A stretch of DNA of 64,000 nt. It comes from Candidatus Moraniibacteriota bacterium. Lineage in GTDB: Bacteria > Patescibacteriota > Minisyncoccia > Moranbacterales > UBA1568. Below, piece after piece: positions 1-22,726 of the stretch (its first letter is position 1; every line of letters starts with the position of its first letter). A program made the position numbers and the translations under genes. The notes beneath the pieces were generated by a model. It was not told the origin of the DNA and searched no databases. It saw only the letters and a program-made list of their open reading frames with translations. Where the stretch lies: the NCBI GenBank assembly GCA_052035095.1, contig JBPOHW010000004.1, positions 23,527 to 87,526 on the forward strand, given 5' to 3'.

Positions 1-1894
1 TTATTTTGCGATTCCGATAAGCGTTCTCGTTTCGGCGTTTGCTTCGTTTCTTTTTATTCCCTCGGCGCTTCCGTCTCTCGCCAATCCCAAGCCGTCAAAG
101 GCGTTTCCGGTCGAATTTTTTTCCGCGGCGATTCTCGTGACGATATCGACCGCTCTCTTTACCACGGTAGACGTGCTTTTGGCGAAGCACTTTATGTTCG
201 AGCGGAATGCCGGGGAATACGCGCTTCTGTCCTTGGTCGGCAAGGTGATTTTCTTTCTCGGCATTATGCCGAATATGTTCATGGTGACCTTTGTCGGACG
301 AAACCGAGGATTGGGAAAGGGAACGAAGAGCGTGTTTCGAATTATTTACTCGATTTCGGCGATTATAGTCACGGGAAGCGTGCTCGTGTTCGGATTTTTC
401 GGAGAGACGTTTGCCACATTGCTGTTCGGCGAAAAAATTCTCCAAATCGCATCTTTCCTTCCGATGTATACCGCGGCGATCGCTTTCTTCACACTCTCGA
501 CCATTATTGTGACGTATCATCTCGCGCGCAAACGGTATGTGTTCGTCTTTGCGGCGCTTTGTATGTCGCTTGCGGAAGCGGTGGGTATCTATCGGCTTCA
601 TTGGTCGCTCGACGGTGTCGTGTGGGTAGTCTTCCTCTCGAGTTTTTTTGGGTGGGTGCTTCTCGAATTCTTGCATTTTTCGGAACCGTCTTTTCAGTTC
701 TTCGGTCGGGCGTATCGGGATTTCCTCGGCGCCTTTCGGGGGCGTTCTCCGGAAGGAAAATTATCTTCAATCGGCAAGCGCGTACTCATTTTTAACTGGC
801 GCGATACGCGACACGCCTATAGCGGCGGCGCGGAAGTGTATGTCGAGGAAATCGCGAAGCGGTGGGTATCGGAAGGGCATACGGTTACGTTGTTCTGCGG
901 CAATGACGGGAAGTCTCCTCGGCACGAGACGCGAGACGGTATCCGCATTGTGCGTCGAGGCGGGTTTTACCTGGTCTACGCATGGGCGTTCGTGTATTAT
1001 TTCACTCGGTTTCGCGGGAAGTACGATGTGATTCTCGATTGCGAAAACGGCATCCCGTTTTTTACGCCATTCTATGTCAAGGAACCGGTCGTTTGCCTGT
1101 TGCATCACGTGCATCAAGACGTGTTCTTCCGATTTTTGCCGAAGCCCTTGGCGATGTTCGCGAGCTTTCTCGAGAAAACGCTGATGCCCTTGGTGTACGC
1201 GCGGGTTCCGTTCGTGACGGTGTCGCAGTCGAGTCGGAAAGATATGGAAGCGCTCGGTATCGGGAAAGCGGGCATTCGTATCGTCCACCCCGGAGTTCAT
1301 CTCGATGAGTTTGTTCCGTCCGAGCGGAAAACCGATCGACCGACTATTCTGTATCTCGGGAGGTTAAAAGCATACAAGTCGATCGATGTGTTACTTCGCG
1401 CGTTTCGATCAGTCATCGCCGAGCGACCGGAGGCTGAACTCATTATTGCCGGAGACGGCGATGAAGAATCCGCGTTGAAACGCTTGGCGTTTGAGGAGCT
1501 CCGCCTTGGGAGCGAGCGTGTTCGGTTTGTCGGTCACGTGTCGGAAGAAAAGAAGAAAGCGCTTCTTCAGGATGCATGGATGCTGATCAATCCGTCGATG
1601 ATGGAGGGGTGGGGCATTGTCGCGATCGAGGCGAACGCGTGCGGGACGCCGGTTGTCGCTTCCGATGTGCCGGGATTGCGCGATTCGGTAAAGAATCCGC
1701 ACTCCGGTTTTCTCGTTCCCTATGGCGACGCGGACGCGTTTGCCGAGAAAATGCTGCTTCTCATTCGCGATCGCGAGCTCCGGCTCGGTATGAATCGCGG
1801 CGCGCGCGAATGGGCGGAGCGGTTTGATTGGAATGTGTCGAGTAAATTGATGTTTGAGGCGATCTCTGTTTCAAATGATGAACGAGTGATATGA
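1..1894 (+). CDS. Fusion protein (5' partial at window edge): polytopic membrane domain (MOP/flippase-like) fused to a C-terminal GT4-family glycosyltransferase
   Basis: The frame is open from position 2 with no stop, so the N-terminus lies upstream of the window. The N-terminal ~190 aa are hydrophobic multi-TM. The C-terminal half carries the GT4/GT1 signature (EGWGIVAIEANACGTPVVASDVPGLRDSV, E-x7-E-like). It overlaps the next gene by 4 nt (ATGA). Confidence 0.7.
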   Translation, partial: YFAIPISVLVSAFASFLFIPSALPSLANPKPSKAFPVEFFSAAILVTISTALFTTVDVLLAKHFMFERNAGEYALLSLVGKVIFFLGIMPNMFMVTFVGRNRGLGKGTKSVFRIIYSISAIIVTGSVLVFGFFGETFATLLFGEKILQIASFLPMYTAAIAFFTLSTIIVTYHLARKRYVFVFAALCMSLAEAVGIYRLHWSLDGVVWVVFLSSFFGWVLLEFLHFSEPSFQFFGRAYRDFLGAFRGRSPEGKLSSIGKRVLIFNWRDTRHAYSGGAEVYVEEIAKRWVSEGHTVTLFCGNDGKSPRHETRDGIRIVRRGGFYLVYAWAFVYYFTRFRGKYDVILDCENGIPFFTPFYVKEPVVCLLHHVHQDVFFRFLPKPLAMFASFLEKTLMPLVYARVPFVTVSQSSRKDMEALGIGKAGIRIVHPGVHLDEFVPSERKTDRPTILYLGRLKAYKSIDVLLRAFRSVIAERPEAELIIAGDGDEESALKRLAFEELRLGSERVRFVGHVSEEKKKALLQDAWMLINPSMMEGWGIVAIEANACGTPVVASDVPGLRDSVKNPHSGFLVPYGDADAFAEKMLLLIRDRELRLGMNRGAREWAERFDWNVSSKLMFEAISVSNDERVI

Positions 1895-2793
1895 AACCAT
1901 TTACCGTTATCGTGGGCGTACCGGCATACAACGAGGAAGCGAATATCGCTTTCTTGCTTGAAGATATCCTGAGACAACGGTGTGAGAGTTTTGTCTTGAA
2001 AGAAATCGTGATCGTGTCGGATGGAAGCACGGATGAAACGTCGGATATCGCGAAGCGATATGAGTTTCGCGCGGTTTCGGTTCGAGGTGACGGAAAGCGA
2101 AAAGGAAAGGCGACAAGACTGAATGAAATTTTTGATGCCGCCCGGGGTCGCGCGGACGCGGTGGTACTCTTCGATGCCGATATCGCGCTTGTCGGAGACG
2201 AGGTGCTCGAGAAAATGGTCGGCGCGGTTCGTTCCGGCGCGGACCTGGTATCTTCGGAACTTTTGGCACTTCCGCCGAAGACGATGACCGGTCGGGCGAT
2301 TTTTGCGAGTCATGAATTGAAGCGACGGATGTTTGCCGAGTGGAGGCGGGGAGAGAATATCTATGCGTGCCATGGCGCGGCCCGCGCGTTTTCAAGTCGC
2401 CTTTTCCCCATCCTTCGGTTCAAAGAAAGTGTCGGCGAGGATGCGTATTCGTATCTTTTTGCCAAACAGCGAGGGTTTCGATATGCTCGCGTGTCGACCG
2501 CGGCGGTTCGCATTCGCGTGCCGGAAACGCTGCGGGATCACGAGAAACAGAGCCGGAGATTTACGGATTCGCAAGCGCTTTTTTTTCGCGAATTCGGACG
2601 AATTGCGGTTTCGGAAGAATACCGGTATCCGAAGTCATTGTTGGTGAGGTATTTCTCGAAATTTTTTCTAATACACCCCTTTGCACTCTCGTGGTATGTG
2701 GGTATTATGTTATATCTCCGCTTTTTCTCTCGGTTTCGCGAACAACAAGGAACATGGTCACCCGCATCGAGCTCCAAGGTTCTCCACTCATAA
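1891..2793 (+). CDS. GT2-family glycosyltransferase
   Basis: N-terminal GT-A fold motifs (VIVGVPAYNEEANIAFLLEDIL; IVIVSDGSTDETSDIA; DAD acceptor motif). ATG overlaps the upstream stop (ATGA), indicating translational coupling. Confidence 0.75.
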   Translation: MKPFTVIVGVPAYNEEANIAFLLEDILRQRCESFVLKEIVIVSDGSTDETSDIAKRYEFRAVSVRGDGKRKGKATRLNEIFDAARGRADAVVLFDADIALVGDEVLEKMVGAVRSGADLVSSELLALPPKTMTGRAIFASHELKRRMFAEWRRGENIYACHGAARAFSSRLFPILRFKESVGEDAYSYLFAKQRGFRYARVSTAAVRIRVPETLRDHEKQSRRFTDSQALFFREFGRIAVSEEYRYPKSLLVRYFSKFFLIHPFALSWYVGIMLYLRFFSRFREQQGTWSPASSSKVLHS

Positions 2794-2806
2794 TAATCGC
2801 GTCGAT

Positions 2807-3619
2807 ATGTTTTCTTTCGGATCTTCCATGTCACTTCGTGTTCGTCGAATTGTATATACATTTCTTCGGATTTCGGATGTTTTTTTCCCGCGCCGTCGAG
2901 ACAAGCTGGTGATTTTTTCCTACCACAGCATTGCAAAAGACGCGTGGCGTTTCAGTATCGATCCGGAACTGTTTCGAGTCCAGATCGAGGCGCTTCTCTC
3001 GACATACCGACCCATCTCTCTTTCGGAGGCGGTTGAGTTTCTTTACGGAAAACGTGTGATTGAACAACCTTCGTTTGTTTTGACTTTTGATGATGGCTAT
3101 CGAGATATTCTCGACGTGAAGGAATTTCTCGCGGAAAAGAAGATTCGTCCGACGTGTTTCATCCTTTCCGATTCTCCGCGCGCGGATCTCGCGGAATTGG
3201 GGACGCGACGAGAATTTCTGAATGTCGCCGATATCCGAGAGTTGATGTCCTCGGGATGGGAAGTCGGGTGTCATAGCGCGACGCACGGAGATTTTTGGGC
3301 GATGACGCCGGAGAGGATTTTCGAGGAGACGGCAAACGCCAAGAAAAAACTCGAAGCCGAACTCGGCGTTCCCGTCCGATATTTCGCCTATCCGCGGGGA
3401 CGGTATACGGACGCGGCGAAGCGCATCATACGGGACGCTGGGTATGATTTGGCGCTCTCTATGGATGACGGATTTCTTTCGACCAAGACCGATCTTCTCG
3501 CCGTGCCGCGTATCGGCGTCGATCGGACGCACACATTGAAAGAATTCGGCGCGATTCACACGGACGCGGCGATACTCTTTCGAAGACTGGTAAAAAAAAT
3601 TATTGGAAAATTTTTATGA
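2807..3619 (+). CDS. Polysaccharide deacetylase (NodB/CE4 family)
   Basis: NodB homology motifs TFDDGYRDI and HSATHGDF. The ORF track gives 2681, but that start overlaps the GT2 gene by 113 nt; the first ATG after the GT2 stop region (2807) is more likely. Confidence 0.7.
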   Translation: MFSFGSSMSLRVRRIVYTFLRISDVFFPRRRDKLVIFSYHSIAKDAWRFSIDPELFRVQIEALLSTYRPISLSEAVEFLYGKRVIEQPSFVLTFDDGYRDILDVKEFLAEKKIRPTCFILSDSPRADLAELGTRREFLNVADIRELMSSGWEVGCHSATHGDFWAMTPERIFEETANAKKKLEAELGVPVRYFAYPRGRYTDAAKRIIRDAGYDLALSMDDGFLSTKTDLLAVPRIGVDRTHTLKEFGAIHTDAAILFRRLVKKIIGKFL

Positions 3620-4350
3620 ATATGCGAAATACTCTTCTCAAAGTTCTCGGACCCGTTCGCGCTCGACTGATGCGAATGCTTCGACCGAAGTCCGGGTATT
3701 TTCTCTTTCCCGTTCCCATGCGAAAACTTGAGCCTATCAGTTCAAAATTCGGGTACGATCGGGGGACGCCTGTTGATCGGTACTATATCGAACGTTTTCT
3801 CGACGGAGTCAAACTCGATATTCGCGGGAAGTGTCTTGAGGTGACGGACAGCGCTTATACAAAACGATTCGGCGAAGATCGGGTGACAAAGAGCGAAGTG
3901 GTTGACATTGATCGAAATAACACAAACGCGACGATCCTTGCCGATCTCCGCGATATGCGAAAGGAAATACCCGATGATACGTTTGATACGATTATCGCGA
4001 CGCACACATTTGGCGTGATTGATGATTTTGAAGCGGCGATACGCGAATGTGTGAGAATTTTGAAGCCGGGTGGCACACTGATTGCGACCGTATCATCCCT
4101 CGGTGTCGCCGCTGAACCCGAGCTTGCGTATTGGAGATTCACGAAGGCGTCGGCGCGATATGTGTTTGGGAAATACTTTGATCGAGAGACGCTCCGCATT
4201 TCGACATTTGGCAATGTGCTTTCGGGTCAAGCGTTTTGGGTGGGACTTGCCGCCGAGGAACTTTCCACAGAAGAGCTTCGAAAAAATGATGATCGGTATC
4301 CGATCGTTATCGGTATTTCCGCAAAGAAAAGTCTTCACGATAATTCATAA
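3616..4350 (+). CDS. Class I SAM-dependent methyltransferase
   Basis: Methyltransf_11-like motifs (LEVTDSAY..; ILKPGGTLIAT post-I motif). ATG overlaps the upstream stop. Confidence 0.6.
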   Translation: MNMRNTLLKVLGPVRARLMRMLRPKSGYFLFPVPMRKLEPISSKFGYDRGTPVDRYYIERFLDGVKLDIRGKCLEVTDSAYTKRFGEDRVTKSEVVDIDRNNTNATILADLRDMRKEIPDDTFDTIIATHTFGVIDDFEAAIRECVRILKPGGTLIATVSSLGVAAEPELAYWRFTKASARYVFGKYFDRETLRISTFGNVLSGQAFWVGLAAEELSTEELRKNDDRYPIVIGISAKKSLHDNS

Positions 4351-4361
4351 GAGAAAGATGT

Positions 4362-5570
4362 ATGAACTCCAATGTGACCAAACTCTCGAAAGAAGAAAAG
4401 CGGCTTGATGTCGTGGTGAAGTTTTTTTATCCGGTCGTTGCCGGTATCGAAACGAATATCTTGAATATCTATTCCTATCTGGCGACACAGGGGTGGGAGG
4501 TGGTGATTCATACCTCGACGAGTACGCCGGACGCGCCTCATTCGCTACCGAGTACGGGGGAGATTCGCGGACTTTCCATTCGCCGATACCGATGGCGTTG
4601 GTACGGATTTGTTCCGGATATTGATTGGCGACGGTCGGGTTCGGTATGTCTTCACAACTTCAATGTGTTTCCGCACAGTTGGATGCTGTCACTCCTCCTG
4701 TTTTTGAAAATGATTCGCCGGACGCGCCGCGCCGTTTTTCTTATTCCTCACGGTGGATATACGCCCGGCTGGTGGACATTTACGCGATTTCAGAGAATAT
4801 CGAAGCGTCTGTATCAGAAATTTATCGGGACATTCTTGATTAACCGTTCGGTAGATGGTCTTCGATCCGTTTCGGAATGGGAAACCGAAGAAACGATCAA
4901 GAGCGGTGTTCGTCGCGATATCGTCGAGACGATTCCAAACGGCATCGAGAAGGAAGTGTATTCCGATATTGAGCGGTTGGCGAGCGATCGTATTCGAACG
5001 CTGGTGAAGGAGCTTGGCGAATATGTGGTTCAGGTCGGGCGTATCCATCCCATCAAGAATCAGTTGACAACGATTCGCGCCGTCGCGAAGGTTCCCGGTG
5101 TCGCGTTTGCGATTGCGGGTCCCGTTACCGATGAAGCGTACAAGAAAACACTCGACGAAGAAATCCGAAAGCTCGGCGTTGCCGATCGAATTCATTTTCT
5201 CGGTGTCGTTGACGGAGTTGACAAGTACTACCTTCTTCGTCATTCTTTGGCAAATACGCATATGGCGTCGTGGGAGAGCTACTGCAATGCCGTTCACGAG
5301 TCAATGAGTCAGGGTTGTATTTGTATTGTCGCCAAAGATACGGCATTGGAAGAACTTATTCGAGATGGCGTAAACGGATACGCGGTTCCCGTTTCGGATG
5401 CTGAGGGAGTCGCGGATAAAATACGCTTTGTTCTCCACAATAGAGAGAGCGAAACGATAGCGGCGATGCGGAAGCGAAATATTGATTTTACGGCAGGGCA
5501 CTCCTGGGATGATCTCGCGCGGCGAGTTGAGGCGTTTTATACGAAAATTCTTCTTGGGAAGCGGTCATAA
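4362..5570 (+). CDS. GT4-family glycosyltransferase
   Basis: GT-B fold C-terminal domain with GT4-like E-x7-E region (WESYCNAVHESMSQGCICIV) and typical length (~400 aa). Confidence 0.65.
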   Translation: MNSNVTKLSKEEKRLDVVVKFFYPVVAGIETNILNIYSYLATQGWEVVIHTSTSTPDAPHSLPSTGEIRGLSIRRYRWRWYGFVPDIDWRRSGSVCLHNFNVFPHSWMLSLLLFLKMIRRTRRAVFLIPHGGYTPGWWTFTRFQRISKRLYQKFIGTFLINRSVDGLRSVSEWETEETIKSGVRRDIVETIPNGIEKEVYSDIERLASDRIRTLVKELGEYVVQVGRIHPIKNQLTTIRAVAKVPGVAFAIAGPVTDEAYKKTLDEEIRKLGVADRIHFLGVVDGVDKYYLLRHSLANTHMASWESYCNAVHESMSQGCICIVAKDTALEELIRDGVNGYAVPVSDAEGVADKIRFVLHNRESETIAAMRKRNIDFTAGHSWDDLARRVEAFYTKILLGKRS

Positions 5571-5585
5571 ATCTCTCTTTATTGT

Positions 5586-7169
5586 ATGAATGTATTTTTG
5601 AAAGTATTCGGGTTCAGTAGAATTTCTTCTGGGTGGCTCCTTTTGTGTTTTTCGGCGCTTGTTTTTTTGTTCGCGCTTCGCGGGCTTCCGGGGAATCCGA
5701 CGGCGGAAGAAATGATGGCGACGGAAACGTGGCGATCCGAGGGTCCGCTTGAGCTGTCTCCAGAGCGGGGACGTTTCGCGCTCCTCTACTCTATCGTTGA
5801 AGATGAATCTCTCTTTTTTTCGCTTCCGGTTGCTCGTCTTGCGACGCCCGACCTCGCTCTCAATCCGGAGGGGAAATTCGTTTCGCTTTTCGCGCCGTTC
5901 CTCTCGTTTATCCTTATACCCGGGTACTTCACTGGGAAATTGTTGGGAGCATCCGTTGTCGGGGCGATTGCCATGATCGCGCTTTTCGCGGCGGGAAACG
6001 CTCTGTTTGTTCGAGCTATAGCGCTTCGTCTTGGCGCCGGAAGGAACGCGGCATCGCTTGGCGCGCTCACGTTTCTTTTCGGGACGCCAGCATTTGCCTA
6101 TGGGACGACACTCTACCAGCATCATGTTTCCGTGTTTTTACTTCTTTTTTCGGTGTACGCATTGCTTCGTTGGAATACTTTTTGGTCGCTTTCGCTGGTG
6201 TTTTTGTTGATCGGCATATCCGTACCGCTCGACAATCCGAATGCGTTTCTCTTCATCCCGATTGCTCTGTGGGCATTGGCGCGTATCGTATCGGTGAAGG
6301 CAGGGGAGTCCGGAGACGCTTTTTCGATGACGGCTCGTCCGCTCCTACTTTTTTCCGGATTGATTGTCGTGGTCCCGCTTCTGCTTTTTATGTGGTACAA
6401 CGTAACGGTAAACGGCGGGGTACTTCAGCTTTCCGGAACGCTCCCGAATGTTCCCGCGATTTCCGAGAATGGATTGGCTCTTGACTCCGATCCCAATCAA
6501 CACACGGAAAAAAAGCCGGAAGAGAGAGAAGAGAAAACAGCGATTGGTTTTTTTGAGACGAGAAATATTTTGAACGGACTCTATGTTCATCTCGTGAGTC
6601 CCGATCGCGGTACTCTTCGATATACTCCGGTTATACTGCTTGGAATTTTTGGATTTGTTTTACTGTATCGGAAGAAGAAGTTTCTTGTTTTGAATGTGCT
6701 CGCTGGCGTTTCTTTGGTGACGCTCCTCCTCTATTCACTCTGGGGTGATCCGTGGGGCGGGTGGGCGTTTGGGTCGCGATATCTTATCCCGGCATACGCG
6801 ATGCTTGGTATCGGTATCAGTATCGCGCTTGAGGAATGGAAGAAGTCTCGTGTTTTTCTCGGTGTTTTTTGCGCGCTTTTCGTTTATTCCGTCGGCGTGA
6901 ATACGCTCGGGGCGATCACGTCGAGCGCGAATCCGCCGCAAATACAGGTCTTGGAACTCGAAGCGCTTTCCGGAAAAGAGCAAAAGTACACCTTCGCGAG
7001 AAACTGGCAGTATCTCCACGAATCGGGATCGAAATCGCTTGCGTATCAAATTGGGATGAATCGACGTATGAGTGCCGAGGCGTACTATTGGTTTCTGGTC
7101 ACGCTTGTTGTCGCGGGGTCGTCGGGGTTTCTTGTTTCTCTCGCCCGTGAAAAAAATCGTACACTATGA
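5586..7169 (+). CDS. Polytopic integral membrane protein, putative GT-C-type glycosyltransferase (ArnT/PMT/YfhO-like)
   Basis: More than 10 predicted TM helices with a soluble-loop architecture, lying inside the glycosyltransferase cluster. The family assignment is tentative. Confidence 0.45.
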   Translation: MNVFLKVFGFSRISSGWLLLCFSALVFLFALRGLPGNPTAEEMMATETWRSEGPLELSPERGRFALLYSIVEDESLFFSLPVARLATPDLALNPEGKFVSLFAPFLSFILIPGYFTGKLLGASVVGAIAMIALFAAGNALFVRAIALRLGAGRNAASLGALTFLFGTPAFAYGTTLYQHHVSVFLLLFSVYALLRWNTFWSLSLVFLLIGISVPLDNPNAFLFIPIALWALARIVSVKAGESGDAFSMTARPLLLFSGLIVVVPLLLFMWYNVTVNGGVLQLSGTLPNVPAISENGLALDSDPNQHTEKKPEEREEKTAIGFFETRNILNGLYVHLVSPDRGTLRYTPVILLGIFGFVLLYRKKKFLVLNVLAGVSLVTLLLYSLWGDPWGGWAFGSRYLIPAYAMLGIGISIALEEWKKSRVFLGVFCALFVYSVGVNTLGAITSSANPPQIQVLELEALSGKEQKYTFARNWQYLHESGSKSLAYQIGMNRRMSAEAYYWFLVTLVVAGSSGFLVSLAREKNRTL

Positions 7170-8797: not shown

Positions 8798-8844
8798 ATT
8801 TTTGATATTATACCAGCTTATTTTTAATCTCTGCTATCTTGTGA

Positions 8845-8939
8845 GTTGCCGAAACTGCAAAAAATATTTTTTCTCACATGCTCCTCGTTGGGCTCGGAGC
8901 AAGCTTTCGAAAAATTATTTTTTGCAGTTTCGGCGTGCA
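8845..8939 (+). repeat. Intergenic long-hairpin repeat element, copy 1 of 4 (GTTGCC-stem-loop-stem-GGCGTGCA)
   Basis: A ~25-bp stem (gccgaaactgcaaaaaatatttttt / aaaattattttttgcagtttcggc) with the conserved flanks GTTGCC...GGCGTGCA shared by the elements at 17482, 18542 and 21008. Located directly after a + strand gene stop. Confidence 0.8.
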
Positions 8940-9017
8940 CGGTAGAAGTCTTTAGAGTAATTTAGTATCATTCGAAAAACTTTTTGTTATACGACTGCTC
9001 CGTGATATTGTAGATTC

Positions 9018-10292
9018 ATGAAGTGGATATTTTTTGGTTTTGGTGTTTTTGCGGTGCTTGGCGCGGGAGGGATGTTGCTTCTCGGAGTGCTTTCATCCGG
9101 AAGCGGGAAGCTTATGGTGTACCCCAAGCCGGAGGCGAGCTTTTGGGCGTTTCGGTCGATTGATACGATGAAACACTCGCGGGATTTGGCGCGGGAGAAG
9201 CTTCATGACGCGTCGTATGACGCAGTGATTGAGCGAGAGGTGAAGGCTATCGCCGAGACGGGCGCTTCGCACATCGCGATTGCGACGCCGTATGATGAGG
9301 AATTTATTCCGTATCTTTCGCGGTGGGTTGAGGCGGCGAGGCGACACGATTTGCGCGTTTGGTTTCGCGGAAACTTCTCGGGATGGGAAGAGTGGTTCGG
9401 GTATTCGCGTATTTCACGCGAGGAACATCTTCAAAAAATGAAATCTTTTCTTCTGAAACACCCGGATCTTTTCCAAGACGGCGATGCGTTTTCGTCGTGT
9501 CCGGAATGTGAAAACGGCGGTCCGGGGGATCCGCGGCAGACGGGTGACGTGTCGGGATATCGAAACTTTTTGGTCGAAGAGTACGAGGCGGCGAACGAGT
9601 CGTTCGAGAAAACAGGGAAGCGGGTTATGACACATTTCTTTTCGATGAACGGCGATGTGGCGCGGCTCGTGATGGACAAAGACACGACGAAAAAGTTGGG
9701 CGGCGCGGTGACGGTGGACCACTATGTAAAGACACCCGAGACGCTCGCGCGCGACGCGGAGGATTTCATCGGACGAAGCGGTGGGAAGCTCGTTCTCGGG
9801 GAATTTGGCGCGCCGATCCCGGATATTCACGGGGCGATGAGCGAGGGTGAACAGGCAGAGTGGCTCGAAGATTCGCTCTACCGGCTCGCGCGCGTTCCGG
9901 ATGTGTTTGGCGTGAGCTACTGGACGCACGCGGGGAGTTCGACCGCGCTCTGGGATGAGAAAGGAAATGCTCGGGAGGCGGTCGGAATTCTTTCCAAATT
10001 CTATCGTCCCAAAGTGTTCTACGGCGTGGTGTCGGATGAATTGGGGACGCCGATTCGAGACGCGCGCGTGTCAATCGGCGGTGATGAGACCGAGACAAAT
10101 AACGAGGGCTACTTTGAGCTTCGCGCGCCGATCGGCGCCGGTGAAAAAACAATGATTTCCGTTTTCGCCCCGGGATTTCTCTCGGCCGACAATTCGGGCG
10201 AGGAATCACAAATGCGAATCATTCTCCGACGCGAACACGAAACAAAATGGTTCAAATTACAAAAATGGTTGAAAGAACGAGCGGGGAATTGA
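9018..10292 (+). CDS. Secreted/membrane-anchored putative glycoside hydrolase (TIM-barrel-like) with C-terminal carboxypeptidase-regulatory-like beta-sandwich domain
   Basis: N-terminal signal/TM segment. Central region carries glycosyl-hydrolase-like motifs (HIAIATPYDEEF..., EFGAP, SYWTH). The C-terminus resembles a CarbopepD_reg domain (GVVSDELGTPIRDARVSIGG...EGYFEL). The exact GH family cannot be assigned. Confidence 0.4.
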   Translation: MKWIFFGFGVFAVLGAGGMLLLGVLSSGSGKLMVYPKPEASFWAFRSIDTMKHSRDLAREKLHDASYDAVIEREVKAIAETGASHIAIATPYDEEFIPYLSRWVEAARRHDLRVWFRGNFSGWEEWFGYSRISREEHLQKMKSFLLKHPDLFQDGDAFSSCPECENGGPGDPRQTGDVSGYRNFLVEEYEAANESFEKTGKRVMTHFFSMNGDVARLVMDKDTTKKLGGAVTVDHYVKTPETLARDAEDFIGRSGGKLVLGEFGAPIPDIHGAMSEGEQAEWLEDSLYRLARVPDVFGVSYWTHAGSSTALWDEKGNAREAVGILSKFYRPKVFYGVVSDELGTPIRDARVSIGGDETETNNEGYFELRAPIGAGEKTMISVFAPGFLSADNSGEESQMRIILRREHETKWFKLQKWLKERAGN

Positions 10293-10308
10293 GAATGGGG
10301 AATGGAGA

Positions 10309-10977
10309 ATGAAGAACAATGAATGGAACACTATGAATCAAAAAGCTCGAGCGCGGGAAATTTTGGGGCGGATTAAAAAAATGTATTCCGAGCCGGGGCC
10401 GTTTGTCGCGTGGTCGAATCCTTTGGAATTGGTCGCGGGGACGGTACTCTCGGCGCAGTGTACGGACGAGCGGGTGAATCGCGTGACGGAGAAGTTATTC
10501 AAGAAATATCGGACGGCGCAAGATTACGCGAACGCGAAATCGGAAGAACTCGAGCGCGATATTTATCAAACGGGATTCTACAAATCAAAAGCGAAGTATC
10601 TCAAGGGGATCGGAAAGCTCTTGGTTGAAAAGTTTGACGGGGAGGTGCCGAATGATTTCGACGCGCTCCTCACGTTTCCCGGCGTCGCGAGGAAAACCGC
10701 GCATATCGTGATGGCGAAGGCGTTTGGGAGATTTACGGGCGTCGCGGTCGATACGCACGTCTTGCGCCTCGCGCCGCGCATGGGACTCACGAAAGAAAAA
10801 GAACAGGAAAAAATCGCGCGCGATTTGGAACAACTCTTTCCTCGCGAAGAATATCTTCACGTGAACGAATACCTCATCACGCACGGTCGCGCGGTCTGTG
10901 TCCCGCGGAAGCCGAAATGCGGGGAATGTGAATTGGTGGAGCTCTGCTTGTTTGGAAGGAAATTATTAGGTCGATAA
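10309..10977 (+). CDS. nth: Endonuclease III (DNA-(apurinic or apyrimidinic site) lyase)
   Basis: HhH-GPD motif with catalytic Lys (LLTFPGVARKTAHIVM), VDTHV Asp motif, and a C-terminal [4Fe-4S] C-x6-C-x2-C-x5-C cluster loop. Confidence 0.85.
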   Translation: MKNNEWNTMNQKARAREILGRIKKMYSEPGPFVAWSNPLELVAGTVLSAQCTDERVNRVTEKLFKKYRTAQDYANAKSEELERDIYQTGFYKSKAKYLKGIGKLLVEKFDGEVPNDFDALLTFPGVARKTAHIVMAKAFGRFTGVAVDTHVLRLAPRMGLTKEKEQEKIARDLEQLFPREEYLHVNEYLITHGRAVCVPRKPKCGECELVELCLFGRKLLGR

Positions 10978-11161
10978 AACGTGAGCGTCATAGAGAGGAA
11001 GAATGAGGAATAAAGAATTAAGAATAAGGCAAAAATCGGAAACGAAAACGATTTTGTTTGAGGCTTAATTCCTGATTCCTTATTCCTGATTCCTTTTCAT
11101 CAATTCGCCGTCACGATGAAGATTCGGGCGGTGCGGAGTTTTTACAATCCATTGGGACTTT

Positions 11162-14100
11162 TTGGTTTTTTGGTGTATACTTTTGGAAGGCGAGAATTTT
11201 TTGGACGCTCGTGTGGGAGGGTATATATCAAAACACAATTCATTTCGTTCGCGACGGGCTCGCCGATATTTTTCGTGGCGGTCTGTTCGTCATTTGAAAC
11301 CGAAATATGTCGGATTTTCTTTGGTGTGCGCGCTTCTCGTTTCCGGCGCGTATTTGTTGTTCTCGGGGCAGATCCGGAGCATTTTTGCCGATGGAGAAAT
11401 TACCGAAACCTGGAACTTCGCGACGCCTGCGGAATACACGGCGTCTTCGGGGGTGACGGTTGACGGATCGAATACCGAGTCGCGGCTTTCGATAATGAAT
11501 TACGCAAGCGATACCGACACGATGGCGCTCTATCATTTCGATGAATCAAGCGGCGATACGGCGAGCGACGCTTCTTCCTATACCAATAACGCGTCAATCG
11601 CGACGGGAACGGGGAGCTTCGGCTCGGGGAGCCTCAATAATGCATTGACACTGAATGGCGCGACGACATTTGTCTCGGCGCCGGATATCGATGCAACGTC
11701 TCTGACGGGCAATTTTACGATAGAAGCGTGGACGAAATTTCCTTCGGGATTCTCGGATACGACGAGCCGGGTGCGAGAGGGGATACTCGATAAAGGCGCG
11801 TACAAGCTCTACTATGACAATGAAACCGGGAAGGTCGTCTTTGAACTCGAGCCGAATACGGTGGCGGCGGTGAACTGGACGCAGGTTGGCGGTCCGGATC
11901 TTCTCAATCAAAATGGCGCATCGCAAAATGTTGAGTTTAACCAAAGCTGGGACGCGAACAGCAAAAACTTCGTGTGGCGACAGGTGGTTGTCGGGAGTGA
12001 TATTTATGTGGCTCTGGGAAGTATAACGACGGGAGTGACCGTGACGGGTGACGCGGAAGTATGGAAGTGTACGGACTGCGCGACGAGCCCGGTGTGGTCC
12101 AAAATCGGTGGTGACGGGATCAATAGCAGTTGGGAAGACGGCACCTACGAAGATGCCTCGTCGCTCGTCTCGGATGGAACCAATCTCTATGCCGGTCTCG
12201 GGAATCGCTCCGCCGAGGCGGAAGTGTGGCGGTTCAAAAGCGGGTCGTGGTCCAAGATAGGTGGCGACGGCACGAACTCGAGTTGGCTTACAACGACACC
12301 GGGTCCCTATGAGCGCGTGACGAGCATGGTGGCGGATGGAACGACGGTGTACGCGGGGCTTGGAACGACGGCGGGCGATGCCGAAGTCTGGAAATGTACA
12401 AGTTGCGATGGCGGGAGCCCGTCGTGGTCCAAGGTGGGCGGTGATGGAACGGGATCGGGCGGGCAGAGCTGGACGACATCGACCTATGAAGAGGTAGCGG
12501 CGCTTGCGATTGTGAATGGGACGACGCTTGCGGTGGGACTTGGGACGGGCGGTGGCGACGGCGAACTTTGGACCTGCGCAACCTCGAGTTGTACCGTGAC
12601 GTCGGGCTGGACGAAGCGTGGTGGCGACGCGTCCGGTTCGGGCGGGCAGTCATGGACCAATGCCTATGATGAGGTTCGCGCGATTACCTCGAACGGAACC
12701 GTGATATATGTCGGTATCGGCGTTTCAACAACGGAAGCGGAAGTGTGGCGGTGTGATATTGGCGGGACATGCACGACGACCTCGGGATGGACTAAGGTAG
12801 GCGGTGACGGAACGGGATCGAGTTGGAATACGAATTATGAGCGTGTCTGGTCGCTCCTTGCGAACGGAACCACGGTCTATGCCGGTATCGGCGATGGTGC
12901 GGGCGATGCCGAAGTCTGGAAATGTACAAGTTGCGATGGCGGGAGTCCGTCGTGGTCGCAGATTGGCGGCGATGGAAATGGAAATCCGCCGCAGTCATGG
13001 GGAAATCAGACCGGAGCGTCGTTTTATTACGCCTCAAGTCTCGCTCTTATCGGAACGAATATCTTCATCGGGGCGTCGAGTGCGGCCGGGACGAGCGGCG
13101 CCGAAGTGTGGCGGTGCGATACGAGTGGGACCTGCAGTAATACCGCTGGGTGGACGCGGATTGCCGGGCAATACCTCAACAAAAGTTGGGGCGCGTTCAA
13201 TCTCAATAGCATCGAATCCATGGCGGTTTCAGATGGGAAACTTTATGCGGGTATGGGGTATGATACGGGAGCGGCGACATCAAACGGCAATGCGATGGTG
13301 TGGGAATTCGATGGGACGAATTGGACGATGATCGGCGGGCAAGGGATAAATAGCTCGTGGACGTATGGACATCCGTCGATTTCGACCTCTACCTATCGAG
13401 CGGTAACGTCGATGACGGGGTATAAAGGAGGTCTCTTCGTCGGTTTGGGCGGATCAACCAATGGCGATGCGGAAGTGTGGCGTTGGAACGGGACGGTCTG
13501 GTCCAAGGTGGGCGGGGATAGCGATGCGTCGGGCGACAATTCGTGGGCGGCAGGGACGAAGCGGTCGGTGCCCGCAATGATCACGATCGGCGATAAGCTC
13601 TATATCGGACTCCAGGGAACGGCGGCGGGCGATGGCGAGCTTTGGTCGTGCGATCTTTCGGGCACCTGTGATACGACGAATGGCTGGACATTTTTGGGTG
13701 GCGACGCGACTGGTGCCGGCGGGCAGTCATGGGCGACGACGGGGCACGCGGCAGTGTGGAGCATGACGTCTCGTGGGACGAATATTTATGTCGGGTTGGG
13801 ATCGAGTACGAATTATGCCGATGTGTGGACCGCCGATACGGCGACGTGTACGCGAACGACCGGTTGGACAAAAATCGGCGGTGGCGGAACGAATTCAAGT
13901 TGGAATACGAGTTACGAAGAGGTGACGGCGCTCACCTGGTATCGCAATGAACTTTATGCGGGACTTGGCGCGAGCGCGGGCGACGCGGAGGTGTGGAAGT
14001 GGAATGGGGCGAGCTGGGGTGGGACGGCAATTGCCGGCGATGGGTTGAATGATAGCTGGGAAGATCTTCTGTATGAACGAGTCCGTTCGCTCAAGAGTTT

Positions 14101-17100
14101 TAACGGTAATCTTATTGTCGGGCTGGGCGATAGCGCCGGTGAGGGCGAGGTGTGGCAGTATGACACGAGTACCTGGACCAAAATCGGCGGTGATGGCGCT
14201 CGTTCCGGATGGACGAATGTGATTGAACGGCTCGGGGCGCTCGCGGCGTATCGCGGGAAGCTCTATGCCGGCGTCGGACTTACGGCAAATAGCGACGCGA
14301 CCGTGTGGGCGTATGGAAACAATGAAATCGTCGAGTCGTCGGCGACGAGTCAGGATTCCGACTGGCATCATATCGCCGTGACCTCGAACGGCTCGACGCT
14401 TCGAATGTATATTGACGGGACCGAAGTGGATAGCGAGAGTCTCTCCGGGTCTCTCGCTAACACGGCGCACCCCTTGGTTCTTGGAGGACTTGCGGGCGGC
14501 GGGCAATATACCGGCGCGGCGCCGGGAATATTAAACGGGAGTATCGATGAAATTCGTATCAGTGATACGGTGCGCGCGTCGTTTCAGACAACGCCGTATT
14601 CGAGTAGCTACGAAACCGTCGAGCTTTCAGATCCGGTACATACCTCCGGGGTTGAGAAGTGGGATTCGTTTGCGGCGAACGAAGACGCGCCGGGGGATAT
14701 CACCTATCGTCTCTCGGATAATGGGGGCTCAACCTGGAAATATTGGAACAGTTCCGCGTGGGTAGCTTCGTCGGGCTTCGGGGAAGCGAATCCGGTCGCG
14801 ACGGTGAATACGAATATCCCGACCTTTCCGGTCTCAACGGGTGGACTGGTGTGGCAGGCAATTCTCCTTGGAAATGGCGATGAGGTCGTGAAGCTTAACT
14901 CGGTGGATCTCGTCGCGACCGAGGATCTTGTGGCGCCCGCATGGCCCGGGAGCCCGACACTCATTGCGAAGAATCAGTCCGGCGGGACGACCGATCTCAC
15001 GACGGCGACGTGGTACACCTATTCGGCGCCCTACTTCGAGTGGTCGGCGGCGACGGATACGGACGGATCGGGAGTGATCGGATACTATGTATGCTTCAGT
15101 TCTCCGGCGTGCTCCGATCCGGTGACCGATGGCGATTTCCAAGTGGGGAATAGCTACACGGCGACGACCGACACGAGTGGCGCGGCGCTGGTCTCGGGAC
15201 AGAAGTACACGCTCTCGGTCAAAGCGAAAGACAACGCGCAGAACACGAGTGTGCTTTTTACCATCCCCTTTGTCTACTGGCTCGATTCGACGGTGCCCAC
15301 TGATCCCGTGGGTGGTGTCACGGCGGCGCCCGCGGTGTATTCTCCCGACGACGACTTTTCTTTTCTCTGGAATGCGGCGGTTGACGGGAATGGCAATCCG
15401 GCGACCAACTCGATGATTGCCGGCTATCAGTATCAGATTGCCGATACCCCGGTCGTCGACGGGTGGTCGGCGACCATCACCGAAACGCAGATTGATATTG
15501 TTGACGCCGCATATCGAACCGGCGAGAACTCTTTCTATCTCCGGACGATTGACAATGCCGGCAATGTCACGGACGGTACGGAGCGAGTCAGGTTTTATTA
15601 TGCCGGTTCGGGACCGACGGAGCCGCGGAATTTGCAGGCGATACCGGAGAGTAATACCGCAAACTCCTTCGCTTTCAGTTGGGATCCGCCGTCTTCTTTT
15701 TCGGGTGATCCGGAGGATCTCACGTATTGCTATACCGTGAACACCGTTCCGACCGAAGATGCCTGCACCTTTACGACCGCCGGTATCGAATCGATCGCCG
15801 CTTCCGCCTTTGCGACCCAGCATGACAATCTTTTCTACGTGGTCGCGAAGAATCCGGAGGATTTGGGCGGGACCATCAACTATGGCGCGTACACGAGTGT
15901 TCCATTTACCGCCAATACGAGCGCACCTGGCATTCCGCTCAATATCGATATCGCCGATGTGTCGGTCAAGAATACCGAATCGTGGAAACTCGCGATCTCA
16001 TGGGAAGAGCCGTCCGATATCGGCTCCGGCGTCGACTCGTATCAGATCTATCACGCCGAGAGCGAGGGCGGGACCTATTCCAAAGTCGCGTCGACGAGCG
16101 GTATCGCGTTTGTCGACACGGGACTTGAGCAGATCACGCACTACTATAAGGTGCGCGCCTGCGATGATGTCAATAACTGCGGTGCCTACAGCGAAGTGGT
16201 ATCGCTCTATCCGACGGGGAAGTACACGGAGCCGGCGACGATTGGCTCGGGTCCCACGGTTTCTCTCATTACCACCAAGAGTGCGACGATCAGTTGGTCT
16301 ACGAATCGCACGTCCGACAGTAAGGTACAGTACGGGAAGAGTTCCGGAACCTATTATTCGGAAGAGCCGAGCAATTCGGAACAGGTGACGGATCACGTGA
16401 TCAAACTCTCAAACCTTTCGCCCGGCACGACCTATCACTATCGCGCGCGTTGGACGGATGAGGATGGGAATACGGGTGTCTCGGGCGAGAAATCGTTTAA
16501 GACTGATCCCGCGCCGACCGTTGTCGACCCCAAGGCGAAGAGTGTGGGGCTTTCGAGCGCCATTCTCGAGTTTACCGCGAAGGGCGCGAGCAAAGTGAAA
16601 ATTTATTACGGCCTCACGGAAGCCTTCGGACTTGTGAAAGAAGTCGCGACCTCCGAAGCCGAGACGACCTATACGACGAGTATTGAGGACCTGCTCGACG
16701 GGACGAAATATTTCTACAAAATCAACACCGTGGACAGCGAGGCGGAAGAATATGAGGGGAATACACTTTCTTTCGAGACGCTCCCGCGTCCCAAAATCGA
16801 AGAGGTGAAGATACAACAGGTGAAGGGAACGGCGCAAACGGTACTCCTCATTTCGTGGAAAACCAATACCGAGACGTCGTCCATCGTCTCCTATGTTCCC
16901 GATGGGAATACCGGCGAGGCGAAAGACGAAGTGGACGTGAAGATGGTGAAGGGCGAGCACAAGATGTTGATCAAAAATCTCTTGCCGCAGACGGGATATA
17001 CGTTGACCGTGAAGGGTCGGGATAATTTCGGGAATGAAGCGAGTTCCGAGCCGCTACGCTTTACCACGGCGACCGATACGCGCGCGCCGCAAATTATCGA

Positions 17101-17455
17101 CGCCAATGTCGAAGGACTTATCGTAAAAACGAATGAAGGAAGCGAGGGCGAGCCGGAGGCACAGCTCATTGTGACGTGGACGACGGATGAGTCGGCGACG
17201 GCGCAGGTCGAGTATGGCGAGGGAACCGGCTCTTCCTATCCGCAGAAGACGCAGGAAGACGCCGCGCTCGTATCGAATCATACGGTCGTCATTTCCAAAC
17301 TCTCGCCGTCAAAAGTTTATCATCTCCGTATTCTCTCCAAGGACAAGGCGGGCAATGTGGGGCAGTCCATCGATATCGTTTCCATTACGCCCAAAGCGAC
17401 CGAAAACGCGCTCGACATCGTATTCTCAAGTCTCAAATCCATTTTTGGAAAGTAG
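11162..17455 (+). CDS. Giant (~2100 aa) membrane-anchored cell-surface protein: N-terminal signal-anchor, ~15 tandem ~50-aa propeller-like repeats, LamG/concanavalin-like domain, multiple FN3-like domains
   Basis: Single uninterrupted ORF. The track start at 11162 is a TTG; the in-frame TTG at 11294 gives a classic KPK-hydrophobic signal-anchor and is more plausible. Repeats match W-x-K-[IV]-G-G-D-G...Y-E-x-V...G-T-x-[LV]-Y-[AV]-G-[LI]-G...G-D-A-E-V-W (Kelch/propeller-like). LamG-like segment: DWHHIAVTSNGSTLRMYIDGTEVDS. The C-terminal half is FN3-like beta-sandwiches (e.g. ATISWSTNRTSDSKVQYGKSSG...TTYHYRARWTDEDGN). Confidence 0.7.
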   Translation: MVFWCILLEGENFLDARVGGYISKHNSFRSRRARRYFSWRSVRHLKPKYVGFSLVCALLVSGAYLLFSGQIRSIFADGEITETWNFATPAEYTASSGVTVDGSNTESRLSIMNYASDTDTMALYHFDESSGDTASDASSYTNNASIATGTGSFGSGSLNNALTLNGATTFVSAPDIDATSLTGNFTIEAWTKFPSGFSDTTSRVREGILDKGAYKLYYDNETGKVVFELEPNTVAAVNWTQVGGPDLLNQNGASQNVEFNQSWDANSKNFVWRQVVVGSDIYVALGSITTGVTVTGDAEVWKCTDCATSPVWSKIGGDGINSSWEDGTYEDASSLVSDGTNLYAGLGNRSAEAEVWRFKSGSWSKIGGDGTNSSWLTTTPGPYERVTSMVADGTTVYAGLGTTAGDAEVWKCTSCDGGSPSWSKVGGDGTGSGGQSWTTSTYEEVAALAIVNGTTLAVGLGTGGGDGELWTCATSSCTVTSGWTKRGGDASGSGGQSWTNAYDEVRAITSNGTVIYVGIGVSTTEAEVWRCDIGGTCTTTSGWTKVGGDGTGSSWNTNYERVWSLLANGTTVYAGIGDGAGDAEVWKCTSCDGGSPSWSQIGGDGNGNPPQSWGNQTGASFYYASSLALIGTNIFIGASSAAGTSGAEVWRCDTSGTCSNTAGWTRIAGQYLNKSWGAFNLNSIESMAVSDGKLYAGMGYDTGAATSNGNAMVWEFDGTNWTMIGGQGINSSWTYGHPSISTSTYRAVTSMTGYKGGLFVGLGGSTNGDAEVWRWNGTVWSKVGGDSDASGDNSWAAGTKRSVPAMITIGDKLYIGLQGTAAGDGELWSCDLSGTCDTTNGWTFLGGDATGAGGQSWATTGHAAVWSMTSRGTNIYVGLGSSTNYADVWTADTATCTRTTGWTKIGGGGTNSSWNTSYEEVTALTWYRNELYAGLGASAGDAEVWKWNGASWGGTAIAGDGLNDSWEDLLYERVRSLKSFNGNLIVGLGDSAGEGEVWQYDTSTWTKIGGDGARSGWTNVIERLGALAAYRGKLYAGVGLTANSDATVWAYGNNEIVESSATSQDSDWHHIAVTSNGSTLRMYIDGTEVDSESLSGSLANTAHPLVLGGLAGGGQYTGAAPGILNGSIDEIRISDTVRASFQTTPYSSSYETVELSDPVHTSGVEKWDSFAANEDAPGDITYRLSDNGGSTWKYWNSSAWVASSGFGEANPVATVNTNIPTFPVSTGGLVWQAILLGNGDEVVKLNSVDLVATEDLVAPAWPGSPTLIAKNQSGGTTDLTTATWYTYSAPYFEWSAATDTDGSGVIGYYVCFSSPACSDPVTDGDFQVGNSYTATTDTSGAALVSGQKYTLSVKAKDNAQNTSVLFTIPFVYWLDSTVPTDPVGGVTAAPAVYSPDDDFSFLWNAAVDGNGNPATNSMIAGYQYQIADTPVVDGWSATITETQIDIVDAAYRTGENSFYLRTIDNAGNVTDGTERVRFYYAGSGPTEPRNLQAIPESNTANSFAFSWDPPSSFSGDPEDLTYCYTVNTVPTEDACTFTTAGIESIAASAFATQHDNLFYVVAKNPEDLGGTINYGAYTSVPFTANTSAPGIPLNIDIADVSVKNTESWKLAISWEEPSDIGSGVDSYQIYHAESEGGTYSKVASTSGIAFVDTGLEQITHYYKVRACDDVNNCGAYSEVVSLYPTGKYTEPATIGSGPTVSLITTKSATISWSTNRTSDSKVQYGKSSGTYYSEEPSNSEQVTDHVIKLSNLSPGTTYHYRARWTDEDGNTGVSGEKSFKTDPAPTVVDPKAKSVGLSSAILEFTAKGASKVKIYYGLTEAFGLVKEVATSEAETTYTTSIEDLLDGTKYFYKINTVDSEAEEYEGNTLSFETLPRPKIEEVKIQQVKGTAQTVLLISWKTNTETSSIVSYVPDGNTGEAKDEVDVKMVKGEHKMLIKNLLPQTGYTLTVKGRDNFGNEASSEPLRFTTATDTRAPQIIDANVEGLIVKTNEGSEGEPEAQLIVTWTTDESATAQVEYGEGTGSSYPQKTQEDAALVSNHTVVISKLSPSKVYHLRILSKDKAGNVGQSIDIVSITPKATENALDIVFSSLKSIFGK

Positions 17456-17481
17456 TGTTTGTCGGTTCCAGCCTCGTGAGC

Positions 17482-17565: not shown

Positions 17566-17603
17566 TAAAAAATGTTTTAGGATATTTTAAGTAGTGAGGG
17601 TCT

Positions 17604-22715: not shown

Positions 22716-22726
22716 TCTTTTGATTT

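Follow-up and report, generated by a model that had tools for sequence, protein, structure and literature searches.

The 5′ region of a 64,000-nucleotide stretch of DNA from Candidatus Moraniibacteriota (contig JBPOHW010000004.1, positions 23,527 to 87,526; the whole stretch is hereafter called the window) probably consists of two cell-envelope modules of the Candidate Phyla Radiation (CPR) that are inherited separately and independently of each other and adjoin only in this lineage of Moranbacteria. Module A (genes g1–g8) putatively assembles a glycopolymer or glycoconjugate of the cell surface; module B (g10–g12) combines a giant surface protein with an ATP-binding cassette (ABC) transporter assigned to the MacB type by its domain matches. 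By its sequence, the window is a genome fragment of the CPR/Patescibacteria from Candidatus Moranbacteria, and several of its genes have their best protein matches in Candidatus Moranbacteria/Moraniibacteriota and other Patescibacteria. Every gene in window positions 1–24000 lies on the + strand, and the two modules are separated by g9 (10309–10977), which encodes endonuclease III (Nth; Pfam HhH-GPD and EndIII_4Fe-2S) and is a housekeeping gene that belongs to neither.

The separation of the modules is evident from the gene neighborhoods of their homologs. Scanning a single genome per species yielded 385 loci with relatives of g7; 80 of these and one further locus (L001) were analyzed, and the resulting 81 loci were scored by phmmer searches of the window proteins against all open reading frames (ORFs) within ±10 kb. 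Locus titles that name CPR groups comprise Moran-, Levy-, Ames-, Curtiss-, Davies-, Gottesman-, Chisholm- and Dojkabacteria, and Paceibacterota. The converse set, anchored on the giant protein (g10), consists of 83 loci (80 metagenome loci and three long contigs). The giant protein is absent within ±10 kb of g7 in all 81 g7-anchored loci, and g7 is absent from all 83 loci of the converse set, which identifies the modules as two separate evolutionary units. A g6-, g7-, or g8-like gene of any kind occurs in one of the 28 giant-protein loci with at least 5 kb of upstream sequence, and none of the three long contigs carries glycosylation genes beside the giant protein. Among the g7-anchored loci, nth was not found (0/81), the ABC ATPase (g11) is present in five, and the FtsX permease (g12) in two. 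The two blocks adjoin also in near-identical strains (L082; 98.6% identity). An initial annotation of this DNA had regarded the glycan cluster as dedicated to the giant protein and had proposed their co-conservation as a test; examined in both directions, the two do not co-locate outside this lineage, which, together with the intervening nth, leaves such a dedication unsupported by gene order and comes near the outcome that the annotation had named as refuting it. Adjacency in a single genome is misleading here, and the natural functional units are g1–g8 and g10–g12.

Module A is recognizable by its gene order. In the g7-anchored loci, g6 lies directly upstream of g7 on the same strand in 77 cases and g8 lies downstream of g7 in 71 cases (of 81 each); genes for g2-like glycosyltransferases of family 2 (GT2) occur in 64 loci and a g1-like gene in 56. 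Less frequent are the family 4 glycosyltransferase (GT4) g5 (30/81), the CE4 deacetylase g3 (29/81), and the methyltransferase g4, which is an accessory gene (10/81). A census of 150 representatives of the g7 family by phmmer with the window proteins revealed natural fusions of g7 with a processive GT2 equivalent to the second module of g1 (m2; nine representatives), with g8 (four), with a GT2 resembling dolichol-phosphate mannose synthase (DPMS) and equivalent to the first module of g1 (m1; two to three), with g6 (one; P0362, 1065 aa), and with a domain of glycoside hydrolase (GH) family 5 (one). One of these proteins (P0415, 1471 aa) joins both GT2 modules and g7. The fusions of GT2 with g7, g7 with g8, and g6 with g7 indicate that the genes of module A belong together. 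In the locus of an uncultured bacterium (AM_bin-0953; L018), a second and a third g7-like ORF and a second g8-like ORF lie downstream of the canonical trio, at a distance of approximately +5.0 to +8.0 kb to the homolog of g7, and are, by their sequences, a local duplication of the g7–g8 pair.

The genes of the cluster are tightly arranged, with 4-nt overlaps of start and stop codons at g1/g2, g3/g4, and g6/g7. These overlaps are compatible with translational coupling and agree with the initial annotation, which had described the gene set as partly translationally coupled. A scan for promoters and terminators in window positions 1–20000 gave no signals above chance, so that operon boundaries are neither set nor contradicted. 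The gene content that had been listed for a seven-gene glycan cluster was recovered at the corresponding coordinates, but an eighth conserved gene, g8 (9018–10292), had been overlooked; it is a member of the module A cluster.

The first gene, g1 (1–1894), is open at the 5′ end of the window and represents the 3′ part of a larger gene that encodes a transmembrane (TM) region and a GT4 domain (Pfam). A public contig (L083) that is 100% identical to window positions 1–8289 and extends 4415 nt further upstream contains the full-length gene as a single ORF of 1620 aa, of which the window covers the C-terminal 631 codons, i.e., the C-terminal half of a putative flippase module and the GT4. The complete protein comprises, in this order, a GT2 resembling ArnC and DPMS (m1), a BcsA-like processive GT2 (m2), a putative flippase of the multidrug/oligosaccharidyl-lipid/polysaccharide (MOP) or Wzx type (m3), and the GT4 (m4); m1 and m2 are known from L083 and lie upstream of the window. 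The fusion of flippase and GT4 described in the initial annotation therefore corresponds to only the last 630 aa of a four-module protein. The same architecture is present in at least 12 related loci, and most of the remaining loci end within g1 at the locus edge.

The m1 module (aa 1–230) matches Pyrococcus DPMS (PDB 5mlz; 1.7e-25), ArnC (2.4e-19), and GtrB (1.1e-15) in the PDB, and ArnC (4e-23), PgfS (2e-20), and AglJ (4e-16) in NCBIfam. Its GT2 domain is followed by hydrophobic segments, and its sequence matches place m1 among the GT2 enzymes of the polyprenyl-phosphate sugar synthase type (DPMS/ArnC/GtrB). The m2 module (aa 350–760) matches BcsA in the PDB (4e-9) and, under the respective cut-offs, CelA (2e-16) and PgaC (1e-15) in NCBIfam. 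A QRSRW motif of the QxxRW type precedes further hydrophobic segments, and by sequence similarity m2 is a processive membrane GT2 synthase of the BcsA/PgaC/NodC type. The m3 module (aa 800–1255) is tentatively assigned to the MOP flippase superfamily through its relatives; among 28 aligned sequences, seven match Polysacc_synt (best 1e-9), five match Polysacc_synt_3 (best 8e-12), and four match MatE. Sequence and profile searches of the PDB with m3 yielded no flippase and only spurious matches to orexin receptors. The C-terminal m4 matches the Pfam GT4 family at 6e-42.

The next four genes encode soluble and accessory enzymes. The 300-aa product of g2 (1891–2793) is a GT2 glycosyltransferase (Pfam Glycos_transf_2, 8e-21) with a single hydrophobic segment at its C terminus. 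The CE4 deacetylase g3 (2807–3619; Pfam Polysacc_deac_1, 3e-21), which starts at ATG 2807 or 2828, resembles PgaB, HfsH, and NodB in NCBIfam; it is predicted to be cytoplasmic, because hydropathy analysis detected neither a signal peptide nor a TM segment. In locus L001, its position is occupied by a PIG-L deacetylase. The remaining two genes encode an S-adenosylmethionine-dependent methyltransferase (g4, 3616–4350; Pfam Methyltransf_11/23/25) and a GT4 glycosyltransferase (g5, 4362–5570; Pfam GT4, 3e-24) that resembles Agl16 (NCBIfam, 8e-48, under the cut-off).

The core of module A is formed by two polytopic membrane proteins, g6 (5586–7169; 527 aa) and g7 (7166–8797; 543 aa), which the initial annotation had described as paralogous GT-C-like proteins. 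The copies in the window are not recognized by the Pfam models YfhO, PMT_2, GtrC, or ArnT; neither has a Pfam match, g7 also has no match in NCBIfam, its score against PMT_2 and PMT remaining below the gathering threshold, and searches of the PDB with sequences and profiles of both gave no meaningful match. In NCBIfam, g6 resembles the putative glycosyltransferase LA_3751/LA_3752 (1e-13, under the cut-off). AlphaFold (AF2) models were built from family alignments and compared with the PDB using Foldseek. The model of g6, in which nearly the whole protein is membrane-embedded, is confident (predicted local distance difference test [pLDDT] 92, predicted template modeling score [pTM] 0.92). Its best match is ArnT (7e-5), followed by STT3, EmbA, AglB, Pmt4, ALG9, DPY19, PimE, and ALG6 (TM-score ~0.44), and the leading matches are all GT-C proteins except for a chain of glycosylphosphatidylinositol (GPI) transamidase at rank 17. 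The model of g7 is fair (pLDDT 78, pTM 0.77), and its first 34 PDB matches are all GT-C proteins, including ALG12 (4e-6), STT3, PglB, ArnT, DPY19, ALG9, Pmt4, AftD, and Emb (TM-score ~0.5). A GPI mannosyltransferase is also among the fold matches of the two proteins. Judging by the models, both g6 and g7 have a GT-C fold.

Further evidence for g7 comes from its distant relatives. When the g7 family served as the profile in an exhaustive search, 2604 clusters were recovered at E<=1e-3, in which the CPR core family scores 840–895 bits and the next scores fall to ~516 bits. Distant members of the family (E<=1e-100 against the profile of g7) pass the Pfam model PMT_2 (27–35 bits vs. a cut-off of 26.1), and g7 is therefore, by transitive homology only, a putative divergent member of the ArnT/PMT-type clan. 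No transporter family was matched by g6 or g7; such a match had been named in the initial annotation as an outcome that would refute its interpretation. A paralogy of the two is not detectable and was rejected (BLASTP E=1; 7.5% probability in an hhalign comparison of profiles with 51 and 54 sequences); what the models suggest they have in common is only the fold class. Together, the fold matches, the distant PMT_2 matches, and the ArnC/DPMS-like module in the operon support the interpretation of module A as a glycan cluster that ends in GT-C transferases using lipid-linked donors.

The g7 family is highly conserved, with 63–100% identity among the 120 best homologs and 63–85% among 50 aligned homologs. 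The motif YNDARSH, which directly follows the first TM segment (N60-D61-A62-R63-S64-H65), is invariant in 51 sequences, and the C terminus is formed by an α/β domain of ~120 aa that is probably extracytoplasmic. No exact-sequence database match is on record for the g7 of the window or for P0001. In g6, E72 and D89 are conserved acidic residues, and an invariant loop motif (W-G-D-P-W-G-G-W-A-F-G-S-R-Y; residues 386–399, window 6741–6785) lies between two TM helices; its resemblance to the WWDYG motif of oligosaccharyltransferases is loose and without established significance.

The last gene of the module, g8, encodes a membrane-anchored protein with a single N-terminal TM segment, a strongly conserved core with the invariant residues E165 (CPECENGG) and E262 (LGEFG), and a C-terminal β-sandwich that weakly matches CarboxypepD_reg and is absent from some lineages. 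Sequence and profile searches of the PDB with g8 gave no meaningful match. A natural g7–g8 fusion (P0371), which is 40% identical to g8 (5e-93), passes the Pfam model Glyco_hydro_cc (26.2 vs. 21 bits) over a stretch that aligns with g8 aa 231–318, and the relative of g7 that is fused to GH5 carries this cellulase domain in the position equivalent to g8. By these sequence relationships, g8 is probably an extracytoplasmic glycoside hydrolase of the clan GH-A type.

The domain content of module A suggests the following sequence of events. The m1 module would load a sugar onto polyprenyl phosphate, and g2 and g5 would add further sugars at the cytoplasmic face, where g3 may de-N-acetylate and g4 may methylate the product if present, in analogy to ArnD acting after ArnC. 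The processive m2 module would synthesize and export a backbone, while the MOP module (m3) would move the lipid-linked sugar outward. Outside, g6 and g7 would transfer the sugar onto the glycan made by m2 or onto another acceptor in the envelope, and g8 may trim or release the product.

A different acceptor is assumed if the cluster is a protein-glycosylation system of the PMT, PglB, or Pgf kind, with the adjacent giant protein as its main substrate and the ABC pair exporting or anchoring the glycoprotein. This would agree with the presence of STT3, PglB, and PMT among the best fold matches of g6 and g7, with the matches of distant g7 relatives to PMT/PMT_2, which are families of protein mannosyltransferases, and with the resemblance of m1 to PgfS (2e-20) and AglJ (4e-16) and of g5 to Agl16 (8e-48), which are enzymes of protein-glycosylation pathways. 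The two blocks do adjoin in this genome and its near-identical strains, and since both modules are widespread among CPR, the cluster might act on the giant protein in trans. However, the absence of co-location outside this lineage (0/81 and 0/83) and the position of nth between the blocks argue against a dedicated system, and the BcsA-like synthase and the GH-like partner, each of which is fused to g7 in other genomes, favor a polysaccharide over a protein acceptor. A protein-glycosylation system with the giant protein as its main substrate is considered unlikely.

Instead of a wall polysaccharide or a glycoprotein, the product could also be a membrane-anchored lipoglycan or a glycolipid anchor, comparable to lipomannan (LM), lipoarabinomannan (LAM), or GPI. 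In this case, a GT4 would start on a lipid acceptor, the deacetylase would remove an N-acetyl group, and after flipping, the GT-C proteins would extend the glycan from polyprenyl-phosphate sugars. The set of GT4, de-N-acetylase, DPM1-like GT2, and GT-C proteins matches the logic of GPI synthesis and of the pathway from phosphatidylinositol mannosides (PIM) to LM and LAM. The replacement of CE4 in L001 by PIG-L, the family of the deacetylase acting on N-acetylglucosaminyl phosphatidylinositol, and the presence of PimE, ALG9/12, and GPI mannosyltransferase among the fold matches point in the same direction. Nevertheless, a BcsA-like processive synthase and a GH partner are foreign to the GPI and PIM/LAM pathways, the deacetylase is absent from most g7-anchored loci (present in 29 of 81), and no enzyme for a lipid acceptor was recognized. 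A lipoglycan is considered an improbable product.

The interpretation of the region as two independent modules, with glycan assembly as the role of module A, has to be weighed against several observations. Every biochemical step of module A is predicted from family resemblance, and all NCBIfam matches of its proteins are far under the equivalog cut-offs. The m3 of the window itself has no direct Pfam or PDB match, only its relatives do. In the model of g7, pLDDT is below 50 at residues 60–78, i.e., in the first external loop, which holds the invariant aspartate. Matches to Glyco_hydro_cc are weak and restricted to 3 of 34 members of the g8 family, the g8 of the window has no GH match, and an hhalign comparison of the g8 family with the GH5 fusion (P0370) was negative. 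A deacetylation step as in the Arn system is not universal, with g3 and g4 present in a minority of the loci. Very divergent genes could have escaped the phmmer searches, which applied a threshold of 1e-5 to stop-to-stop ORFs, and many record labels of metagenome-assembled genomes are unreliable. Lastly, missing synteny is compatible with a glycosylation of the giant protein by g6 and g7 in trans.

The giant surface protein of module B is encoded by g10, whose ORF opens at TTG 11162 (2097 aa) and ends at 17455; the database copy starts at 11324, and the likely start is GTG 11213 (~2080 aa). Hydropathy analysis indicates a TM anchor at the N terminus. The initial annotation had reported ~15 Kelch-like repeats of ~50 aa, a LamG domain, and many FN3 domains. 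Tandem repeats are indeed present, but their number is 14 and their length ~53 aa (within aa 277–1043; consensus GDAEVW.W.G..W..IGGDG.NSSW...YE.V.S....G.LYAGLG). Membership in the Kelch family is rejected, because a search of aa 277–1043 against Pfam at E<=1 matched neither Kelch nor any other repeat family; the units probably fold into two seven-bladed propellers. The LamG and FN3 assignments are corroborated by Pfam (Laminin_G_3 and fn3/Pur_ac_phosph_N), except that the LamG domain is split by the repeat array: aa 101–262 align with profile positions 2–71 of Laminin_G_3 and the segment after the repeats with positions 44–145. With both pieces spliced together, the score increases to 70.1 bits (from 53.6 bits), which indicates that the array is inserted within one LamG domain. 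The C-terminal ~930 residues contain roughly nine FN3/Ig-like domains, and the Pfam scan detected no SLH or S-layer match.

Homologs of g10 numbered 457. The 120 best, from Moranbacteria, Saccharimonadales, Woesebacteria, and others, share 38–100% identity, and 118 of them measure 1930–2135 aa; the other two (1037 and 1191 aa) include one that is labeled partial. Between distant CPR lineages, identity is 38–50%, and the family alignment shows invariant residues along its full length at a mean column identity of 58%. This full-length conservation argues for a conserved part of a machine rather than a diversifying adhesin.

Downstream of g10 follow an ABC ATPase of the LolD/FtsE/MacB type (g11, 17604–18506; Pfam ABC_tran 8e-32; NCBIfam LolD 7e-57, FtsE 3e-53) and a permease (g12, 18661–20958) that exceeds the Pfam cut-offs of both MacB_PCD (65 bits) and FtsX (63.9 bits). 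The hydropathy profile of g12 shows a first TM segment, a big loop, and three more TM segments, in addition to one further TM segment at the N terminus. Its extracytoplasmic domain is enlarged to ~450 aa and contains a linker rich in Ser, Thr, Ala, and Pro. By these matches, g11 and g12 constitute a MacB-type ABC transporter, as the initial annotation had recognized. Its linkage to the giant protein is also borne out: among the 57 giant-protein-anchored loci with at least 3 kb of downstream sequence, 55 encode an ABC ATPase, an FtsX permease, or both within 3 kb downstream (permease in 54, ATPase in 46). In the three long contigs, a MacB/FtsX permease follows the giant gene, with the ATPase either between the two (two contigs) or just upstream on the opposite strand (one contig).

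These findings bear on an alternative in which g10 encodes a variable adhesin or S-layer-like protein of the ordinary kind and the ABC pair is an unrelated neighbor with a function in efflux or of the FtsEX type. FN3 and LamG domains and propeller-like repeats are characteristic components of adhesins, and large surface proteins with such domains have often been proposed as host-attachment factors of Patescibacteria (PMC13059738), which is counted in favor of an adhesin. A variable adhesin is difficult to reconcile with the narrow length range of all but two of the 120 best homologs, the identity of 38–50% across lineages, and the invariant residues along the full length, and a chance neighborhood with the recurrence of ABC genes behind the giant protein in 55 of 57 informative loci from different lineages, so that this alternative is very unlikely. 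By analogy to FtsEX or LolCDE, the MacB-type transporter of module B would act by mechanotransmission and either power conformational work in the giant protein or extract and deploy it from the membrane.

The ABC pair is followed by a CHASE4-PAS sensor (g13, 21168–22715; Pfam) and a PAS-HisKA-HATPase kinase (g14; both together span 21168–24007; Pfam). The sensor follows the ABC pair also in L086 and L089, and g13 and g14 may be regulatory neighbors of module B in Moranbacteria only. In L086 and L087, which represent two distant CPR genomes, type IV pilus genes (a PilB-like protein with MshEN and T2SSE domains, T2SSF, and N_methyl pilins) are located a few kb downstream of the giant protein–ABC module.

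A substantial part of bacterial diversity belongs to the CPR/Patescibacteria, which live in attachment to other cells. To our knowledge, their surface chemistry and attachment machinery are nearly uncharted. Full-text literature searches recovered no description of module A or module B, although their coverage was incomplete and an earlier description is possible; g6, g7, and g8 are labeled "hypothetical" in nearly all records, and the giant protein is named by its domains only. Both gene sets are conserved beyond the norm for surface functions, with identities of 60–70% for g7 and ~40–50% for the giant protein across CPR-named records. Module A provides a hypothesis for a common envelope glycan of CPR and extends the catalogue of glycosyltransferases by two GT-C families and a four-module enzyme of unusual architecture. 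Module B suggests a giant extracellular partner for a MacB-type ABC motor. It is conceivable, albeit doubtful, that module A is a near-universal and possibly essential CPR-specific pathway for an envelope glycan, built on the four-module g1 and the two GT-C families, and that module B is an unrecognized extracellular machine in which a MacB motor mechanically drives or deploys a 2000-aa surface protein, with a split LamG domain, a double propeller, and FN3-like domains, for host contact in episymbiosis. In that case, either module would offer a testable handle on the surface biology of CPR.

Several other features of the window were recorded. An ORF of 540 aa (26968–28590, + strand), ~18 kb downstream of the glycan cluster, matches Wzy_C of the O-antigen ligase/polymerase family (1e-13) and could, by this similarity, encode a ligase or polymerase that acts on the same envelope glycan or on a different one. 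A 1139-aa transporter of the resistance-nodulation-division (RND) superfamily (29346–32765, − strand; AcrB/AcrD/AcrF family, 8e-190) is unexpected for CPR, which are thought to be single-membraned. A region of low GC content (34000–37100; 0.39 vs. ~0.52 elsewhere) coincides with an ORF (34139–37024, + strand) for a 961-aa P-loop NTPase of the KAP family (5e-29) and may be a horizontally acquired or defense-related insertion. Another predicted surface protein (422 aa; 38612–39880, − strand) combines a PKD domain with two matches to the Lamin Tail Domain. Across positions 1–64000, every 2-kb bin has a positive GC skew and the cumulative skew climbs steadily; within the first 29 kb, the + strand encodes almost all large genes. 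This pattern fits a single replichore with strongly co-oriented genes. A search for tRNA genes in the 64-kb window was negative.

Transposon sequencing (Tn-seq) data are available for Southlakia epibionticum (PMC10633639). Its essential FN3-domain protein (SEML1_0890) has only 195 aa, and its MacB pair (SEML1_0053/54) has no giant neighbor, so that the dataset provides no functional data for the present families. In the same genome, SEML1_0889–0891 encode a YfhO/Rgt-like GT-C protein with a TM domain of the STT3 type, followed by two Tn-seq-essential proteins, one with CarboxypepD_reg/Ig-like and one with FG-GAP/VCBS domains (PMC10633639), an arrangement that resembles g7–g8 in its domain layout.

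Module A shares the combination of a GT2 polyprenyl-phosphate sugar synthase, a putative flippase, and a polytopic GT-C protein with the three-component systems ArnC-ArnD-ArnE/F-ArnT, GtrA/B/C, CsbB-GtcA-YfhO, and GacI-GacK-GacL. The likeness to the Arn system extends to g6, whose top fold match is ArnT, and to the predicted cytoplasmic CE4, which stands beside a GT2 as ArnD stands beside ArnC. Unlike these systems, which employ a single GT-C protein, module A encodes GT-C proteins of two unrelated families one after the other, together with a conserved GH-like partner. It also fuses the synthase, the putative flippase, a processive synthase, and a GT4 into one protein of 1620 aa. With the synthase-dependent systems BcsA/BcsZ, PgaC/PgaB, and NodC/NodB, it has in common a processive GT2 with a QxxRW motif, a CE4 of the PgaB/NodB/HfsH type, and a GH-like partner. 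Here, the differences are that BcsB, PgaA/D, and a PilZ domain for c-di-GMP were not seen in module A, that its deacetylase is predicted to be cytoplasmic, and that its synthase is coupled, in relatives even by fusion, to GT-C proteins, a coupling that is not known from the synthase-dependent systems. By analogy, the logic of module A matches a three-component system grafted onto a synthase-dependent polysaccharide system.

The Pgf operon of Streptococcus mutans, which consists of PgfS, PgfM1, PgfE, and PgfM2, functions in protein glycosylation, with surface adhesins as proposed substrates. Module A likewise combines a PgfS-like GT2 (NCBIfam, 2e-20) with two polytopic membrane proteins in one operon; however, m1 reaches 73 bits against a PgfS cut-off of 500 bits, the epimerase is missing, and module A has a processive synthase and a GH-like partner in addition. 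For module B, the closest parallels are the MacB-type (type VII) ABC systems of mechanotransmission FtsEX-EnvC/PcsB/CwlO, LolCDE, and MacAB, which also combine a LolD/FtsE-type ATPase and a permease with the four-TM MacB core with a coupled extracytoplasmic protein. Module B differs from these MacB-type systems in that a coiled-coil hydrolase activator, a lipoprotein substrate, or a MacA-like adaptor was not seen; its partner is a protein of ~2000 aa with its own TM anchor, a split LamG domain, repeats, and FN3-like domains, and the extracytoplasmic domain of its permease is enlarged to ~450 aa in this lineage. Both modules are thus variants of known logic with unusual architectures.

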